The position numbers were made by a program, and so were the translations under genes. Under the pieces are notes generated by a model that worked only from the letters and a program-made list of their open reading frames with translations, did no database searches and was not told where the DNA came from. 42,059 nucleotides of DNA, from positions 1 through 42,059 of the forward strand of contig CAYZCD010000002.1 in NCBI GenBank assembly GCA_964476825.1. The letters run 5' to 3'. This DNA comes from an uncultured archaeon. Its GTDB lineage: Archaea > Aenigmatarchaeota > Aenigmatarchaeia > JACPZZ01. This document shows, in pieces, positions 3,103 through 37,075 of the stretch (the stretch's first letter is position 1; every line of letters starts with the position of its first letter).

Positions 3103-3169
3103 AACAATAAAATAGCCTCCGGAGAGATATTAATAAACTTTCCTCTAGAAAAGAAACAAGTAGAGAACT

Positions 3170-3200
3170 GAAGCATACCGATACAGCATACGGATGCTTC
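3170..3200. repeat. tRNA-associated hairpin family, copy H1
   Basis: GAAGCAT(A)CCG / CGGATGCTTC gives 10 bp with one bulge. Loop is ATACAGCATA. 5' flank AACT, 3' flank TAGCT, then 5 nt before tRNA-Thr. Confidence 0.8.
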
Positions 3201-3210
3201 TAGCTGTAAA

Positions 3211-6679: not shown

Positions 6680-7423
6680 ATGGAAAGACTTACCATCAGG
6701 CAGAAAGATATAATAAATAAATTATATGATTCTGGTAAAAGCCTCAACTACTTAGCAACTCTGCTGGGCAAATCCAAAACTACGATTTATTACCATGCCC
6801 GTAAAAATTTCGGCACAAGAATGAAACCGATCGTGTTTAATATCAAGTCAAAAAAAGATTTTGGAGAATTTATCGGGGCGTTCGCAGGCGACGGGGGGTT
6901 TTATCTGGATAAAAAATATAGATATTTGATAAATTTTTATCTTTCCTCCAATGAAACAGCCTACGCCGAACATATTTCTAGAATTATCGGTGATACATTT
7001 GGTAAAAAACCAAACATTTTGTTGTACAGAAAAGTGAATATGATCAGAATAAGAGTGATGGGTAAGAGTATCCATGAAATTTTAAAAACTTATTTGTATT
7101 GGGGCAAAAATAAAACTCTTACCATCCGCCTGAGAAGAGCTTCGATGAAAATGGGAAACAACTTTTTGAAGGGGGTCGCCACCGGATTGATTGCGACCGA
7201 CGGATCTGTATACGTACCTAGAAAATGGATCTCTTTTGCTACAATTTCTAAAACATTATGCCTGCAACTTTCGGCGATTTTAAAGAAATTTGGTATAGGC
7301 AGCGCAATTTATCCGTCAAAATATAATGGAAAAAAGACTTTATACCAGCTACGTATAAAGGGTAAAAACAACCTAACAAATTTTGAGAAAAGGGTAGGTT
7401 TTAAAGAGCATCGTATGAAATAA
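6680..7423 (+). CDS. double-motif LAGLIDADG homing endonuclease with N-terminal HTH
   Basis: FIGAFAGDGGF and LKGVATGLIATDGSV are two LAGLIDADG motifs. HTH-like N-terminus. Very AT-rich gene. TATA-like TTAAATATATTTA lies 12-27 nt upstream of the ATG. Confidence 0.85.
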   Translation: MERLTIRQKDIINKLYDSGKSLNYLATLLGKSKTTIYYHARKNFGTRMKPIVFNIKSKKDFGEFIGAFAGDGGFYLDKKYRYLINFYLSSNETAYAEHISRIIGDTFGKKPNILLYRKVNMIRIRVMGKSIHEILKTYLYWGKNKTLTIRLRRASMKMGNNFLKGVATGLIATDGSVYVPRKWISFATISKTLCLQLSAILKKFGIGSAIYPSKYNGKKTLYQLRIKGKNNLTNFEKRVGFKEHRMK

Positions 7424-8216: not shown

Positions 8217-8256
8217 GCTATTAATATTTCTGAACAAAACAGATTCTAAGTAAACT

Positions 8257-8288
8257 GAATCATACCGATACAAAATACGGTATGATTT
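8257..8288. repeat. tRNA-associated hairpin family, copy H2
   Basis: GAATCATACCG / CGGTATGATTT gives 10 bp plus one G.T pair. Loop is ATACAAAATA. 5' flank AACT, and the 3' flank TAGTT abuts tRNA-Leu directly. A collapsed CTGAAC..GATTCTAAGT relic lies at 8230-8251. Confidence 0.8.
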
Positions 8289-8324
8289 TAGTTGCGGGGG
8301 TAGCCAAGCCCGGTCAAGGAACCA

Positions 8325-8348
8325 GAAGCATATCTGCTGATATGCTTC
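8325..8348. repeat. hairpin family copy H3, inside the tRNA-Leu D-loop intron
   Basis: GAAGCATAT / ATATGCTTC is 9 bp perfect, with loop CTGCTG. Enclosed by AACC (8320-8323) and GGTT (8354-8357). Confidence 0.7.
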
Positions 8349-8400
8349 AGTCGGTTCGACTTGAGTGATGAGGTTAAGCAAACTGGCGCAACAACAAACT

Positions 8401-8421
8401 GACACATACATGGTATGTGTC
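8401..8421. repeat. hairpin family copy H4, inside the tRNA-Leu D-loop intron
   Basis: CT-GACACATAC / GTATGTGTC-TGGTT is 9 bp with loop ATG. The flanks mirror the family CTGA...T(A/G)GTT pattern. Confidence 0.6.
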
Positions 8422-8638
8422 TGGTTGCAATGCGTCTGTCTGAACAACCAATGACTAGAGGCGTCAGACTCAAGTAAGCTTTCCCAGAAAGAAAGCCTAA
8501 GCAAAGAAGGGAAATCTGATCTCCTAGCGAGTTCGTCGGTTCAAATCCGGCCCCCCGCACTTTCTTTTCACTAAAAAAGCCATATTTAAACCTTGCAGAA
8601 ACTCATTATTCATACAAACTTTTTGAAAACGTGGTTTC

Positions 8639-17986: not shown

Positions 17987-18010
17987 GACTAAAAACAGGA
18001 TTCATCGGCT

Positions 18011-18037
18011 GAAGCGTACCGGAAAGCGGTTTGGCTT
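18011..18037. repeat. degenerate hairpin family copy (non-tRNA context)
   Basis: CT-GAAGCGTACCG, loop GAAAG, CGGTTTGGCTT-GTAAA. About 9 pairs with a mismatch and a bulge. Same 5' arm type as H1 and the same GTAAA trailer as H1. Confidence 0.5.
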
Positions 18038-18079
18038 GTAAAATATAAATATAGCGGAAAACATGACTTCTCTGATAGC

Positions 18080-20461: not shown

Positions 20462-20498
20462 GGAAAAAATTAGTATTTAACCTCACGCTCTATAGCTA

Positions 20499-20529
20499 GA
20501 AACATATGCATACCAATAGCACATATTTC
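20499..20529. repeat. tRNA-associated hairpin family, copy H5
   Basis: CTA-GAAACATATGC / GCACATATTTC-AGT has 9 of 11 positions paired. Loop is ATACCAATA. Confidence 0.6.
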
Positions 20530-20541
20530 AGTCAGTAGCTG

Positions 20542-20572
20542 AAAACAGTCACATACAAGATGTGACTGTTTT
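20542..20572. repeat. tRNA-associated hairpin family, copy H6
   Basis: CTG-AAAACAGTCACAT / ATGTGACTGTTTT-AGTT is 13 bp perfect with loop ACAAG. Lies 7 nt before tRNA-Arg. Confidence 0.8.
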
Positions 20573-20583
20573 AGTTTACCTGT

Positions 20584-31178: not shown

Positions 31179-31278
31179 GCCGAGGTCGCATAATCTGGTG
31201 GTGCACTGGTCTCGAATTTAGATGGAACAGAAAACCAGCGGGCGCAAGCCTATAAGGGTTCAAATCCCTTCCTCGGCG
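31179..31278 (+). tRNA. tRNA-Ser (anticodon CGA) with 16-nt intron
   Basis: Acceptor GCCGAGG/CCTCGGC, anticodon stem CTGGT/ACCAG, loop CTCGAA|intron 31217-31232|A. Long variable arm CGGGCGCAAGCCTAT. T arm AAGGG-TTCAAAT-CCCTT, discriminator G. TATA-like ATTTAAATAAAA at -33 to -22. Confidence 0.75.
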
Positions 31279-33642: not shown

Positions 33643-34476
33643 TTATTCCCAAAATTCCTTGATTATTTCCTCGGATATCCGCGTTATAACGCGCTCCGGC
33701 ACGAAAATTTCCATCGAAATGGTCTTGTCATATTTTATTCTTTTTAATTCTTTCACGGTCTTGCGGAAATCTATTGACGCGATTCCGATCGGCAGGTGTT
33801 CGTCCATTTTGCCGTGGTTGTCGTGCATATGTATGTGCTGTATGCGTTTACCGAATTTTTTGATGTGATTCGAAACAGATTTCATGCCTCCGCCGATGAA
33901 TGCATGACCGATGTCCAAGTTGACTGCTAAACCGTCAACTTCTGAAATTATTTTTTCAAAATCCCTGATCGATGACATTTCTGTCGTGTTTTCCAGCATC
34001 ACGGCCATCGAATCGCCGGCATAGTCCACGAGTTTCTTCATGTTTTCGATGTAATTTGACACAACTTCCTTAAGCAAGCCGCGGTCGGACAGCATCATGC
34101 TCTGGGAATGGGCGTGGAAAGTTATTTTTTGCACGTTAATTTTCTTTCCCGCGTCTATGATTTTTTTGCACTCTTCCAGCCAAGCGCTGCGCACGATTTC
34201 GTGCGGACTTCCCAGGTCTATCCACCACGCAGCGTGCCCGAGTGTGAACATGTTGTGTTTCTTAACCATCTTATTTATTTTACCGGCCATGTTCGCTATT
34301 ATTTTCGGCGACCCTTCCGGCTCCTCAATCCCGACTTCGACGAAATCAAAATTAAGAGACGCGATTTCCCGTATTTCCTGCATCAAGTCCAGTGAGGGGT
34401 TTGTAGTCGTGCCGAATTTCGGCAGGCCAGACTGATTTAAACGCGTCTTAGATACGTTTCTGTCTGTCTCTACCAT
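33643..34476 (-). CDS. xylose-isomerase-like TIM-barrel protein (sugar phosphate isomerase/epimerase family)
   Basis: Spacing of conserved His/Asp/Glu metal ligands: FHAH, MLENT, DIGHAF, HIHMHDN. Confidence 0.65.
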   Translation of the reverse strand: MVETDRNVSKTRLNQSGLPKFGTTTNPSLDLMQEIREIASLNFDFVEVGIEEPEGSPKIIANMAGKINKMVKKHNMFTLGHAAWWIDLGSPHEIVRSAWLEECKKIIDAGKKINVQKITFHAHSQSMMLSDRGLLKEVVSNYIENMKKLVDYAGDSMAVMLENTTEMSSIRDFEKIISEVDGLAVNLDIGHAFIGGGMKSVSNHIKKFGKRIQHIHMHDNHGKMDEHLPIGIASIDFRKTVKELKRIKYDKTISMEIFVPERVITRISEEIIKEFWE

Positions 34477-34522
34477 GGAATTAGTTCTCCTGAAGCCAAT
34501 TTAAATAGGAGTCGTGGATAAC

Positions 34523-34573
34523 AGACATAGATACTGTTGCTGACTGACTCACATCTATGATATGCGTCTAGTT
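34523..34573. repeat. expanded/degenerate hairpin family copy H7
   Basis: AGAC-ATAGAT ... ATCTAT-(GATATGC)-GTCT-AGTT. The arms resemble GAAGCATA..TATGCTTC-TAGTT but carry a 20-nt loop insertion. Six nt separate it from tRNA-Val(CAC). TATA-like AATTTAAATA at 34498-34507. Confidence 0.45.
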
Positions 34574-34579
34574 AAAAAC

Positions 34580-34693
34580 GGGTCCATTGTCTAACGGTAG
34601 GACGCCACCCTCACATGACCTTTTAAAAAGAGTGCTCAGCCAAAGAACGGTTTGGGATCGGTGGAGACGAGAGTTCAATTCTCTCTGGACCCA
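34580..34693 (+). tRNA. tRNA-Val (anticodon CAC) with canonical 43-nt intron
   Basis: Acceptor GGGTCCA/TGGACCC. BHB: CCACC|CTCA|CAT|GACC paired with GGTT|TGGG|ATC|GGTGG. Intron is 34616-34658. T arm GAGAG-TTCAATT-CTCTC, discriminator A. Confidence 0.85.
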
Positions 34694-34703
34694 CTAATAA
34701 ACT

Positions 34704-34735
34704 GAATCAGATTCTTTTTAGTATGAATCTGCTTC
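34704..34735. repeat. tRNA-associated hairpin family, copy H8 (inverted loop type)
   Basis: AACT-GAATCAGATTC / GAATCTGCTTC-TAGTT has 10 of 11 positions paired. Loop is TTTTTAGTAT. Begins 10 nt after tRNA-Val(CAC). Confidence 0.75.
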
Positions 34736-34747
34736 TAGTTATCGCCT

Positions 34748-34779
34748 GAAGCGAATGGTATTTAGCATCCATCTGTTTC
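34748..34779. repeat. tRNA-associated hairpin family, copy H9 (inverted loop type)
   Basis: CT-GAAGCGAATGG / CCATCTGTTTC-TAGCT has 8 Watson-Crick pairs, 2 G.T pairs and 1 mismatch. Loop is TATTTAGCAT. Confidence 0.65.
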
Positions 34780-34808
34780 TAGCTACAAATGCATGCCCAC
34801 TAAAAAAA

Positions 34809-35300
34809 TTATAACTTACTGGACAAGCTCATTTTCGACGAGGCTATTTCCTCGCCGGTTTCGGCATCGATAACTGTTGAAATTACGTTAAAGTTTTTCA
34901 GGAATATGTTAACCTGCCATGTCGGCCCGGTTTCGGCGCGCGCGTTCGTGGACGTACGTAAAACTGAAACCACGCGCGAAATGGATTCGTTCGGGGCTTT
35001 CGACAGGCACTTTTTCATGGCATCCTCCGGGTTCAATGAAGCTTTGTTTATTTTCAATGCCATTATTTCCGTGTCTTTCATGGGCGGCGACAGGCCGGAA
35101 AACTCCATGTTGTCCCCGGCTACGTTGAACGATGCTATCTCGTTCTTCTCCCGATTGTAGAAATTTACGACCGCAGAATTGGCCTTTGATTCCAGCGAGC
35201 CGGTAACAAGCATAACGGACGAAAAGAAATATTTTTCCTTGGCCAGCTCTGAGACCCGCCGGCTGGATTCTACAAGGCTTTTAATCTTTTGTATATCCAT
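34809..35300 (-). CDS. hypothetical protein (two PepSY-like repeats?)
   Basis: 163-aa ORF. The repeated ...ISTVIDAETGEEI-type ending suggests a PepSY-like fold, but this is weak. Confidence 0.45.
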   Translation of the reverse strand: MDIQKIKSLVESSRRVSELAKEKYFFSSVMLVTGSLESKANSAVVNFYNREKNEIASFNVAGDNMEFSGLSPPMKDTEIMALKINKASLNPEDAMKKCLSKAPNESISRVVSVLRTSTNARAETGPTWQVNIFLKNFNVISTVIDAETGEEIASSKMSLSSKL

Positions 35301-35340
35301 TTAGACCTACGAACTAATAATTCAAGCGTAGAAGATAAAT

Positions 35341-35371
35341 AAAGCAGACACAGTTGTTATGTGTCTGCTTT
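35341..35371. repeat. tRNA-associated hairpin family, copy H10
   Basis: AAAGCAGACACA / TGTGTCTGCTTT-GAGTT is 12 bp perfect with loop GTTGTTA. Confidence 0.7.
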
Positions 35372-35390
35372 GAGTTGCTCAAAGTAGGCT

Positions 35391-35421
35391 GAAGCATGTG
35401 CGTACGAATGGCACATGCTTC
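35391..35421. repeat. tRNA-associated hairpin family, copy H11
   Basis: CT-GAAGCATGTGC / GCACATGCTTC-CAGTT is 11 bp perfect with loop GTACGAATG. Five nt (AAAAC) separate it from tRNA-Val(TAC). Confidence 0.85.
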
Positions 35422-35431
35422 CAGTTAAAAC

Positions 35432-35504
35432 GGGCCTATGGTCTAGTGGTTAGGACGTCGCGTTTACACCGCGAAGACCGCCGGTTCGAATCCGGCTGGG
35501 CCCA
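35432..35504 (+). tRNA. tRNA-Val (anticodon TAC)
   Basis: Acceptor GGGCCTA/TGGGCCC, D stem GTCT/GGAC, anticodon stem TCGCG/CGCGA, loop TTTACAC, T arm GCCGG-TTCGAAT-CCGGC, discriminator A. No intron. Confidence 0.9.
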
Positions 35505-35513
35505 CTGTAACTA

Positions 35514-35545
35514 GAAACAGGCGCTATTTAGTATGCGCCTGTTTC
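35514..35545. repeat. tRNA-associated hairpin family, copy H12 (inverted orientation)
   Basis: AACTA-GAAACAGGCGC / GCGCCTGTTTC is 11 bp perfect with loop TATTTAGTAT. The TAGTT flank is on the minus strand and faces the 3' end of tRNA-Val(TAC). Confidence 0.85.
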
Positions 35546-35582
35546 GGCTTACCACTCGGCTGAAATAGATGAATAGCAGCTA

Positions 35583-35613
35583 GAAGCATATGCGTACAAA
35601 CAGCATATGCTTC
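35583..35613. repeat. tRNA-associated hairpin family, copy H13
   Basis: CTA-GAAGCATATGC / GCATATGCTTC-TAG-TT is 11 bp perfect, or 14 bp with the CTA/TAG flanks. Loop is GTACAAACA. Four nt separate it from tRNA-Ala. Confidence 0.85.
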
Positions 35614-35622
35614 TAGTTACGA

Positions 35623-35746
35623 GGGCCGGTAGATCAACGGTAGATCGCCACATTGGCATAAGCTTTTCCAAAAAGCTTAACCAAAAGAGGATGGTAAAGA
35701 CTTACCAAATTTGTGGAGGCTTCGGGTTCGAATCCCGACCGGTCCA
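35623..35746 (+). tRNA. tRNA-Ala (anticodon GGC) with canonical 52-nt intron
   Basis: Acceptor GGGCCGG/CCGGTCC with G3.T70. Anticodon stem CCACA/TGTGG, loop TTGGCA|intron 35659-35710|T. Central helix TTGG/CCAA with 3' bulge ATT. T arm TCGGG-TTCGAAT-CCCGA, discriminator A. Confidence 0.85.
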
Positions 35747-35793
35747 AATAAACAAAAATTAAACTGATAAAACTACGTTAACAATTCTAAATT

Positions 35794-35828
35794 GCCCGAT
35801 GAAGACACCCAATGGGCGAACTGAGGGC
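35794..35828 (+). ncRNA. candidate K-turn (C/D-box-like) mini RNA
   Basis: GCCC-g-ATGAAGA-CACCCAATGGGCGAA-CTGA-GGGC. It has a terminal 4-bp stem, a C-like box matching 6 of 7 positions of RUGAUGA, a D box CTGA, an inner CCC/GGG hairpin, and then a T7 run at 35833-35839. Confidence 0.3.
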
Positions 35829-35899
35829 GCCATTTTTTTGCGATTGCCGGCAAACAATGTTTTATTAAGAGTTTTGGATAAAAACTATTCAGTGGTTAA

Positions 35900-37075
35900 A
35901 TGGAAAGTTTTGCGGTTTTGCTTGTAGCTGCTGTGTTGTTCCTCGGGTTCCTGTTTTTGGGAACATACGCGATGGATGCCCAATACAACAGCGGGTTTTG
36001 GGGCGGACTTTTCGGCTCGCCTGCTAAAAAAGCTTCGGTGGTCAGGATTGATTTGACGTCATTCCCGCAATTTTTTATCGGGTTTACGAAAGAGGACAAA
36101 GCACGTGCCGTCAGTTACGATGATTTTGCGCTCGGGTCCGAATCGTCGATGAATATCAAAAATGTTTTGTCGCAGGACATATCAAACGGCCTGTTTTCCA
36201 ACAGCGGGCTTTCGTTAGATGTCAATCTTGAACAAGCCACAGTCAACGAGGCCGTTGGCGCAACATTAGCATTCGAAATTGCGGATACGAACAATTACGG
36301 CAACCTTGTGGTTGCATGGAACGGCAAAGAATATTATAATGACAAAGCCCCCACTGGCAAGATCTCGTTAAAACTACCGAAAGGGTCGCTGAAAAATGCA
36401 AATAAACTGGAAATAAAATCTACCGGCCCGGGCGCAAGGTTCTGGGCAGACTCCATATATTCGCTGAAAAACATTAAACTGGACGTGCTGACAGTTTCAA
36501 AGAGAACGCTTTTCTTTGATGTGTTTCCCGAGGAAATTTCAACGTGGAGTTCGGGCGTACTTAATTTCCGGCGCTCTGATTATTCGTCACAAAACGGCGT
36601 GATAAAAGCCTACGTGAATGGAAAATTAGTTTACAACAGATTTCCCAACGAGGCGGATAAAATAGAAATAGGCCCCAATGACATAAGGTCCGGAAGCAAT
36701 ACGGTAAGTTTGGAATCTTCAGGCGGAGCATTCAACCTAAAAAACGTTTTCATGAACATATTCTTATGGAAAAACAGGACATCCGGCATAACCAACTCTT
36801 TTGTCTTGGACGAAAGCGATGTGATGCTGTTAAATAAAACCGGATATAGCGGAGTCATAGACATAAGCCTGGGCGAGATCCTGAAAGCCGCTCCTTTGGA
36901 AATAAGATTTTCCGGGAACAGGACGGCCAAATCGATATTCATTACGGAATTGAAAGACCACGTTACCGCGACTTTTGGTGAAGACCAAGTTGTGGCGGGA
37001 AACAACACGATGACATTCGCAACTGACGGTTCAATGAGGATAGCTTCGGTTGACGTTTTCATCCAGGGTCGATAG
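35900..37075 (+). CDS. membrane-anchored secreted protein, unknown function
   Basis: 391 aa. N-terminal hydrophobic segment FAVLLVAAVLFLGFLFLG. Beta-rich ectodomain. Followed 2 nt later by the next ORF. Confidence 0.55.
   Translation: MESFAVLLVAAVLFLGFLFLGTYAMDAQYNSGFWGGLFGSPAKKASVVRIDLTSFPQFFIGFTKEDKARAVSYDDFALGSESSMNIKNVLSQDISNGLFSNSGLSLDVNLEQATVNEAVGATLAFEIADTNNYGNLVVAWNGKEYYNDKAPTGKISLKLPKGSLKNANKLEIKSTGPGARFWADSIYSLKNIKLDVLTVSKRTLFFDVFPEEISTWSSGVLNFRRSDYSSQNGVIKAYVNGKLVYNRFPNEADKIEIGPNDIRSGSNTVSLESSGGAFNLKNVFMNIFLWKNRTSGITNSFVLDESDVMLLNKTGYSGVIDISLGEILKAAPLEIRFSGNRTAKSIFITELKDHVTATFGEDQVVAGNNTMTFATDGSMRIASVDVFIQGR

Follow-up and report, generated by a model that had tools for sequence, protein, structure and literature searches.

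The window analyzed here is a complete contig (42,059 nt) from a Candidatus Aenigmarchaeota archaeon of the DPANN group and contains a family of short hairpins that share a conserved base and mostly lie near tRNA genes. These hairpins are probably, though by no means certainly, a clade-specific family of small self-nesting DNA palindromes, in behavior an archaeal analogue of the bacterial repetitive extragenic palindromes (REP/REPIN) or of a very small MITE (miniature inverted-repeat transposable element). They look like a family settled in spare spacer DNA that flanks tRNA genes or follows stop codons, rather than a tRNA-specific structured RNA, and are best described as new archaeal REP-like self-nesting palindromic repeats. 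The family was present in multiple copies in several Aenigmarchaeota genomes, in noncoding DNA only, and its members were gained, lost, and swapped at orthologous sites. Copies had inserted into each other's loops, and their stems remained perfectly Watson-Crick on both strands. An earlier note on this DNA knew of no described element with this frame, and we found none either. Rfam returned only tRNA matches (at the gathering threshold for the whole window and at E ≤ 1 for positions 34400 to 35950), and literature searches yielded no description of the element or of any REP-like element in Archaea.

Twelve clear and two degenerate hairpins in the window had the frame (A)ACT(A)GAAGC…GCTTC(T)AGTT in common (Table 1). 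The family is built from a base of the form (GTA)ACT(A)GAARCA, conserved as CTAGAAGC/GCTTCTAG, 4 to 5 variable self-complementary pairs, and a 9- to 10-nt RTAC-type loop, for a total of about 35 to 50 bp. Stems measured 11 to 13 bp, or up to 16 to 18 bp with the flanks, loops ranged from 3 to 10 nt, and fold z-scores reached -8.8. A covariance model built on 10 of the window copies was scanned over each strand of the 42 kb. It matched only sites that had already been listed (3162, 8249, 8317, 8393, 20496, 20534, 34696, 35333, 35383, 35506, and 35575), with the 34740 site overlapping a neighboring match, and it gave about 25 further matches in three syntenic loci of relatives. Of the 14 hairpins originally listed, 12 were recovered in this way and are convincing members, with fold energies of z -2.7 to -7.7 versus shuffles for the good copies. 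The other two, at 34523–34573 and 18011–18037, were weak; their membership is doubtful, and they are degenerate relics at best. The count of five perfect stems of 11 to 13 bp was confirmed, with 13 bp at 20542, 12 bp at 35341, and 11 bp at each of 35391, 35514, and 35583 (15 to 16 bp with the flanks).

Because a hairpin-based search guarantees pairing, the stems were tested by selecting on the 5-nt frame alone. The bare frame GAAGC-N12-40-GCTTC occurred 4 times, as opposed to 1.25 times expected. In 103 kb of sequence not selected for hairpins, 15 frame-only matches were complementary at 6 of 6 inner positions, against an expectation of 0.01, which places the structure well beyond chance. In an alignment of 33 copies, 98% of the cells were paired, and double changes were found in 6 of the 11 stem pairs. 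The covariation score of this alignment was 0.54; shuffles gave 0.18, and slid registers gave 0.09 or less. The existence of a real family is thereby confirmed: its base and flanks are conserved, and its upper stem varies but stays complementary. The inner stems had been described as completely different yet complementary. Their complementarity held, but they followed the pattern GAA(G/A)CA(T/G)-RYNN and fell into a few subtypes; more than 25 stem types were counted within the lineage.

Covariation does not tell a functional RNA from a palindromic repeat, since "alternative complementary stem residues" are found in REP families of bacteria as well. These families also form dimers and clusters whose orientation alternates, and they insert into other palindromes (PMC3733652). 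One-sided or G·U intermediate changes numbered 3, against 78 double changes. Among 94 frame-bearing candidates with no more than 3 stem mismatches, 47 were perfect, 13 had one mismatch, and 23 had three, the latter being mostly chance matches. G·T and A·C mismatches were equally frequent (23 and 24, respectively), without bias toward the sense strand, and a recurrent G·T pair at the base of the stem was found once on the sense strand and three times on the antisense strand. The orientation of the loop (RTAC... versus ...GTAY) and the side of the single unpaired base varied independently, and both orientations were found at equivalent positions, including beside tRNAs. Taken together, these features fit a palindrome maintained as DNA better than an RNA evolving through wobble intermediates.

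To place the family in related genomes, syntenic loci were collected by means of a 163-amino-acid open reading frame (ORF; positions 34809 to 35300) from five relatives, L001, L002, L004, L068, and the more distant L067. Nine other homologues of this ORF were found, several of them named as Aenigmarchaeota by their sources. A strict hairpin pattern was also scanned over 185,579 species genomes and matched 62 stretches. Sixteen of these belonged to 5 Aenigmarchaeota species genomes (metagenome-assembled genomes), and the remaining 46 were unrelated longer palindromes or terminators in bacteria. A metagenome scan with the hairpin pattern returned about 12 family contigs plus bacterial terminators, and one with the tRNA-Val core returned no match. 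A viral or plasmid origin was rejected, as none of the 26 pattern matches among IMG/VR viral contigs had a complementary inner stem.

Copies of the family were shared and rearranged between these genomes in ways typical of repeats. The 32-mer GAAGCATACCG-ATACAGTATA-CGGTATGCTTC was identical at nonhomologous loci in four species-level genomes and three metagenome contigs. Stems of the GAAGCATACCG type, a high-copy subtype with near-identical members, accounted for 24 of 61 copies, a count partly inflated by the search patterns. At no fewer than 12 sites, an inner hairpin with its own AACT...AGTT frame lay inside the loop of an outer family hairpin. One of these sites was three-tiered and the others two-tiered; their fold z-scores ran from -5.8 to -8.8. 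Nested pairs built from different stem types occupied one and the same orthologous site in L034 and L052.

Turnover was evident at several other orthologous sites. Upstream of tRNA-Val(TAC), there were two copies in the window, two in L002 (with other stems and an inverted loop), one in L004, and none in L001. The copy at 35333 was absent in L001 and L004 and had a different stem in L002, while the copy at 35383 had the same stem in L004, a different one in L002, and no counterpart in L001. A copy occupied the site 3' of the ArgRS gene in L004 and L037, whereas L001, L002, and the window had this site empty; the spacer after the DUF5654 gene, which is convergent with MgtC, was filled only in L037. 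In an all-against-all BLAST of 16 loci, no repeat unit was longer than about 90 nt, so a longer insertion sequence with the hairpins as its ends was rejected.

These results run counter to the view in the earlier note that the hairpins are a selected structure and not a decaying repeat. It had named near-identical copies outside the window as evidence that would speak for a simple repeat, and such copies were found in part, as the 32-mer in four species genomes. Nesting, presence or absence at orthologous sites, the use of both orientations, and the scarcity of G·U intermediates further argue against that view.

All copies were located outside coding sequence, an arrangement with a chance of about 1e-14 for 14 uniformly placed copies. 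In the window, 11 of the 12 extragenic copies were found within 150 nt of a tRNA gene, compared with 45% of the noncoding DNA (P about 0.001), and the only copy away from a tRNA was the degenerate one at 18004. In contrast, only about 4 of 17 copies adjoined a tRNA in 12 loci of relatives that had been fetched by the hairpin. The others lay 4 to 31 nt after the stop codons of ordinary genes (ArgRS, AP endonuclease, and DUF5654, for example), often between convergent genes. The concentration around tRNA genes reported earlier is present in the window, where the enrichment is modest, and holds only in part for the family in general.

Where copies do adjoin tRNAs, their spacing was narrow. The proximal end of the hairpin lay 9 to 14 nt upstream of tRNA position +1 in about 17 of 19 cases, so that the AGTT flank ends about 5 nt before +1, and copies 3' of tRNAs started 8 to 12 nt past the tRNA end. 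The statement that six of the eight window tRNAs have a copy at the 5' end was borne out: the AGTT flank ended 0 to 6 nt before +1 in these genes, and tRNA-Gly and tRNA-Ser had no copy. Canonical TTTAAATA-type boxes were found upstream of the hairpins, which most likely places the hairpins inside transcribed leaders. Family hairpins also occurred inside tRNA introns, among them intron 1 of the window tRNA-Leu.

Taken as a REP-like DNA repeat, the palindrome would be propagated or homogenized as DNA. This could happen by hairpin-dependent transposition through some enzyme and/or by copy-to-copy conversion combined with templated repair within the hairpin. Copies would persist only where they are harmless. 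Since 92% of the genome is coding, such places would be limited to short stretches downstream of a stop codon or to those whose transcript is later thrown away, that is, tRNA 5' leaders, 3' trailers, tRNA introns, and 3' untranslated regions. Insertions would be tolerated in transcribed sequence that RNase P, tRNase Z, or the splicing endonuclease later cuts away, and also in the few bases separating a stop codon from the promoter that follows. A survival filter of this kind would explain the concentration around tRNAs, and the narrow permissible stretch from the transcription start to the last ~5 nt of the leader would give the tight spacing to the RNase P site. As RNA, the hairpins may secondarily buffer transcript ends, and the family may have been co-opted for a secondary role in marking such ends.

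Several observations weigh against a REP-like repeat. No transposase or recombinase was linked to the family: the window ORFs gave none in Pfam, and a scan for the HUH...Y motif in about 190 kb, less than about 10% of each genome, gave no match. In a published survey, only IS200-type Y1 transposases occur in Archaea, and the REP-associated classes (RAYT, for REP-associated tyrosine transposase) are confined to bacteria (PMC6006769). No target-site duplication or exact insertion boundary was definable from filled and empty orthologous sites, because the relatives are too diverged and their intergenic DNA is saturated with changes. Moreover, the "empty" leaders in L001 and L002 keep the 5' half-frame ACTGAAAC, which simple insertion does not explain. 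Finally, the narrow distance between hairpin and tRNA, the conservation of the base sequence across species, and the two clean compensatory changes that separate the orthologous hairpins 3' of ArgRS in L004 and L037 fit a selected cis-acting function equally well.

Such a function is the strongest alternative, and we regard it as rather unlikely. The hairpins transcribed in pre-tRNA leaders, pre-tRNA trailers, and mRNA 3' ends would then be boundary elements under selection, acting in cis as RNA (or as single-stranded DNA). They would mark out or shield the ends of transcripts, keep the tRNA fold insulated, or offer their conserved base to a sequence-specific protein for binding or cleavage, with the variable upper stem free to drift while pairing holds. 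The fixed positions relative to tRNA ends and stop codons, the probable inclusion of the hairpins in leaders transcribed from upstream TTTAAATA-type boxes, and the conservation of the whole 32-mer as well as the base across species are all consistent with this function. So is the situation in the distant L067 (51% protein identity), which lacks the GAAGC frame, yet has a different hairpin about 8 nt 5' of tRNA-Val. A boundary function sits poorly, however, with the lack of G·U enrichment and of sense-strand bias in the mismatches, with both orientations at equivalent positions, and with copies that are dispensable at orthologous sites. Three-deep nesting, tandem stacking, and copies within introns are likewise difficult to accommodate, as are the two window tRNAs and several orthologues that have no copy and the absence of a U-tract after the hairpins.

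We retain the REP-like DNA palindrome as the preferred explanation. A more far-reaching proposal can be put forward only tentatively: the family would be the first REP/REPIN-like mobile palindrome in Archaea, one whose targets are spacers of processed RNA (leaders, where the palindrome ends ~5 nt short of the tRNA 5' end, trailers, and bulge-helix-bulge introns), which nests in its own loop and is moved or homogenized by a non-RAYT enzyme. Alternatively or additionally, it would be a sequence-specific boundary hairpin co-opted by the DPANN host for pre-tRNA and mRNA ends.

We compared the family with known systems, beginning with REP, BIME, and REPIN elements, which are bacterial palindromic repeats tagged with GTAG or CGTC (PMC3733652, PMC2817692). 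Like REPs, which measure 20 to 40 bp, the archaeal elements are short, extragenic, multicopy palindromes able to form a stem-loop. They form subfamilies with complementary stem changes, occur as singletons, dimers, and clusters in alternating orientation, insert inside other palindromes, and are frequently found directly after stop codons. About a third of the archaeal copies also have a unilateral GTA(A/G) near the foot. In 23 of 65 copies (35%), GTA[AG] stood no more than 4 nt from the stem on one side or both, compared with a per-side background of 2.5%. In REPs, however, the tag stands at one end outside the stem in >90% of members (PMC3733652), whereas the archaeal motif can itself pair as part of the extended palindrome GTAACT...AGTTAC and is sometimes merely the upstream stop codon. 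A REP-type GTAG tag was rejected for these reasons, despite the enrichment. The archaeal elements further differ from REPs in their DPANN host, in the lack of a RAYT or Y1 transposase in the sequence scanned, in their longer (11 to 18 bp) and A/T-richer stems with loops of 9 to 10 nt, and in their colonization of tRNA leaders, trailers, and introns. REPs usually number >100 per genome; the density of the archaeal family was about 12 copies per 42-kb window, and about 60 copies were found in about 230 kb of partly hairpin-selected sequence.

MITEs such as the Neisseria Correia elements and the archaeal IS200/IS605-derived PATEs are likewise short nonautonomous repeats with conserved inverted ends and a variable center. 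They are intergenic, present or absent between relatives, and can be cotranscribed and fold as RNA hairpins. The archaeal element, at 35 to 50 bp, is 3- to 10-fold smaller and is a palindrome throughout, in which inverted ends are trivially present. Flank tables revealed no consistent direct duplication around the copies, with filled and empty pairs too diverged to define one, and in the all-against-all BLAST of 16 loci the ends were not shared by any longer element. The only TnpB-like ORF, a partial one, was at the end of L004, where it does not adjoin a copy.

Mobile tRNA introns are known from Archaea, with intron transposition in Thermoproteales. They resemble what is described here as small structured elements moving among tRNA genes, with introns gained and lost between close relatives, as was seen here in tRNA-Ala and tRNA-Val(CAC). 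The hairpin family differs in that it has no bulge-helix-bulge frame of its own and lies mostly outside tRNA exon-intron junctions. Sequence inspection led us to reject a bulge-helix-bulge, because the frame has one single-nucleotide bulge only, and a k-turn (C/D box), because the CUGA on the 5' side has no RUGAUGA partner. Intrinsic terminators share with the family a stable hairpin shortly after a gene, but the archaeal copies lack a U-tract and also occur 5' of tRNAs and in introns. Archaeal termination needs no hairpins. A terminator scan found 2 sites versus 1.8 expected, one of them (on the minus strand) on a family hairpin, and the bacterial-type terminator was rejected. A study of RNase P (PMC12439589) contained nothing relevant on leader hairpins.

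Two remaining alternatives have little probability. In the first, the hairpin would be a portable archaeal promoter whose A/T-rich loop, centered about 25 to 27 nt 5' of tRNA position +1, serves as a TATA box; the tRNAs would then be leaderless. The loop center indeed lies at -25 to -27 for the copies at 3170, 20542, 35391, and 35583 and for several orthologues. Near-leaderless tRNAs do exist in this genome, as seen from the hairpin-free tRNA-Ser at 31179, whose TTTAAATA lies at -32 to -25. But the loops GTACGAATG, GTACAAACA, and ATACAGCAT are unlike the genome's TTTAAATA boxes, which are conserved upstream of the hairpins, and copies with short loops (AAG and AGCG) hold the same 11- to 13-nt spacing, so that the base of the stem, rather than the loop, sets the spacing. 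Elsewhere, stop codons precede most copies, and the next gene's own TATA box lies 3' of the hairpin. The TATA box in the loop was rejected on loop sequence and spacing.

The second, equally improbable, is that the palindromes serve a dimeric DNA-binding protein as double-stranded operators or act as attC-type recombination sites, as the conserved symmetric ends, the single unpaired base near the foot, and the many copies directly after ORF stops might suggest. Dimeric binding needs no complementarity between the variable inner arms across >25 stem types. An attC site has conserved ends, a variable self-complementary center, an unpaired base, and a post-ORF position, and it acts as a folded single strand, but attC sites are longer than the archaeal elements, and no integrase was found in any locus. 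There was no cassette array either, the neighbors being housekeeping genes in conserved synteny, such as ArgRS, AP endonuclease, and MgtC. The R'/R'' core (RYYYAAC/GTTRRRY) was also absent: none of the flanking sequences (AGTTAAAAC, AGTTGTT, or AGTTACGA) matches GTTRRRY.

Table 1. Hairpin copies and tRNA genes in the window (for tRNA genes given by one number, the start position)
Feature	Position	Strand	Score or basis
Hairpin GAAGCAT(A)CCG/CGGATGCTTC with one bulge; GCTTC end 10 nt upstream of tRNA-Thr +1	3162..3208		47.8 bits, z -2.7
tRNA-Thr	3210	+	
tRNA-Gly	7444	+	
Hairpin GAATCATACCG, loop ATACAAAATA; AGTT flank abuts tRNA-Leu +1	8249..8296		47.7 bits, z -6.2
tRNA-Leu(CAA), two introns	8294..8560	+	Spliced in silico, then called tRNA-Leu by ARAGORN
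Short-loop hairpin CAGAAGCATATC-TGCT-GATATGCTTCAG (loop 4 nt), in tRNA-Leu intron 1	8317..8356		24.3 bits
Short-loop variant CTGACACATAC-ATG-GTATGTGTCTGG (loop 3 nt), in tRNA-Leu intron 1	8393..8429		22.7 bits
Degenerate, doubtful copy between divergent IleRS and PIN-ATPase genes	18004..18040		z -1.1; no model match at E ≤ 1
Imperfect copy GAAACATATGC/GCACATATTTC, first of tandem pair 5' of tRNA-Arg	20491..20537		26.9 bits
Perfect 13-bp copy AAAACAGTCACAT; stem end 11 nt upstream of tRNA-Arg(CCT) +1	20534..20580		51 bits
tRNA-Arg(CCT)	20583	+	
tRNA-Ser	31179	+	
Degenerate, doubtful copy in tRNA-Val(CAC) leader; only GTCTAGTTAAAAAC flank kept	34523..34573		z -1.3; no model match
tRNA-Val(CAC)	34580..34694	+	
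Copy GAATCAGATTC, loop TTTTTAGTAT (reverse loop orientation); start 10 nt after tRNA-Val(CAC)	34696..34743		50 bits
Imperfect copy GAAGCGAATGG/CCATCTGTTTC, in tandem with preceding copy; 30 nt from stop of minus-strand ORF 34809..35300	34740..34787		Sequence inspection, fold z-score
Perfect 12-bp copy AAAGCAGACACA	35333..35379		45.3 bits
Perfect 11-bp copy GAAGCATGTGC; end 11 nt upstream of tRNA-Val(TAC) +1	35383..35429		51 bits
tRNA-Val(TAC)	35432	+	
Perfect 11-bp copy GAAACAGGCGC, reverse loop; start 9 nt after tRNA-Val(TAC)	35506..35553		51.5 bits
Perfect copy AGCTAGAAGCATATGC, 15 to 16 bp with flanks; end 10 nt upstream of tRNA-Ala(GGC) +1	35575..35621		48.7 bits, z -7.7
tRNA-Ala(GGC)	35623..35746	+	

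The gene content of the window is archaeal and includes Nop5, fibrillarin, a PIN-ATPase-KH protein, a DHH/RecJ-like protein, IleRS, and ArgRS. Only 3,186 nt of the contig (7.6%) are neither coding sequence nor tRNA. Rfam found seven of the eight tRNA genes, four of which contain introns. The eighth, tRNA-Leu(CAA), was missed by both Rfam and ARAGORN in its unspliced form and became a valid tRNA-Leu once spliced in silico. Its intron 1 (about 8320 to 8461, ~142 nt) occupies a noncanonical position after the D-arm, and its intron 2 (about 8475 to 8513, 39 nt) is canonical. A GTGATGA...CTGA stretch at about 8365 to 8402, within intron 1, resembles C/D boxes.

The introns of tRNA genes differed among close relatives (the window, L001, L002, and L004). 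The intron of tRNA-Ala(GGC) was 52 nt long in the window and L004 and 17 nt long in L001, and it was missing from L002. The intron of tRNA-Val(CAC) was present in the window and L002 and absent from L001 and L004. The relatives also had a three-intron tRNA (L001, 2054 to 2267; L002, 1048 to 1206; L004, 2060 to 2280), which Rfam missed and ARAGORN mistyped; the intron in its T-loop holds a CTGACCGACACACAC hairpin. A second hairpin family of about 45 nt, ...CTTTCTTT-N3-4-AAAGAAAG..., was found both as tRNA introns (for example, at 35660 to 35710 of the window) and free-standing, directly after tRNAs in L002, L004, L067, and L068. This distribution suggests intron-like elements that live outside tRNA genes too.

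Other features accompanied the tRNA loci. The spacer between tRNA-Val and tRNA-Ala (35506 to 35622) was predicted to close by pairing of the 5' flank GTAACTAG of the 35506 copy with the 3' flank CTAGTTAC of the 35575 copy (z -7.7), a fold that would bring the two tRNAs together. A ~40-nt sequence, GCCCGATGAAGACACCCAATGGGCGAACTGAGGGCGC, at about 35795 to 35833 of the window was kept in 6 of 6 related loci. A terminal stem, together with C-like and D boxes (CTGA for the latter), marks it as a probable small RNA of the C/D-box type; it had no Rfam match. An ORF with LAGLIDADG and helix-turn-helix domains (6680 to 7423, plus strand) stops 20 nt before tRNA-Gly, and a LAGLIDADG ORF in L001 (12465 to 13100) abuts an intron-bearing tRNA; such ORFs may be homing-endonuclease remnants linked to tRNA loci.

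Palindromes unrelated to the family were also encountered. A 40-nt palindrome, CTGGAAGCATAAGTTTGCCG-N4-CGGCAAACTTATGCTTCCAG, recurred in bacterial contigs of Acidobacteriota, Chloroflexota, Bacillota, and other phyla, and a different conserved hairpin (GAAGCATGCAGAACC...) recurred in Sphingomonadaceae. The bacterial contigs with unrelated palindromes were L005, L006, L012, L013, L016, L017, L019, L044, L048, L050, L053, L055, L056, and others.

Family hairpins and multi-intron tRNAs make standard tRNA finders miss genes, as with tRNA-Leu in the window and the three-intron tRNA of the relatives, which is a warning for annotation. The family also offers a practical strain and lineage marker for Aenigmarchaeota, and its copies provide a natural test of how much structure is tolerated in pre-tRNA leaders, trailers, and introns. 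The presence of dense self-nesting palindromes in a 92%-coding DPANN genome means that even extremely reduced archaeal genomes carry such repeats, and it raises the question of which enzyme moves or homogenizes the palindromes.

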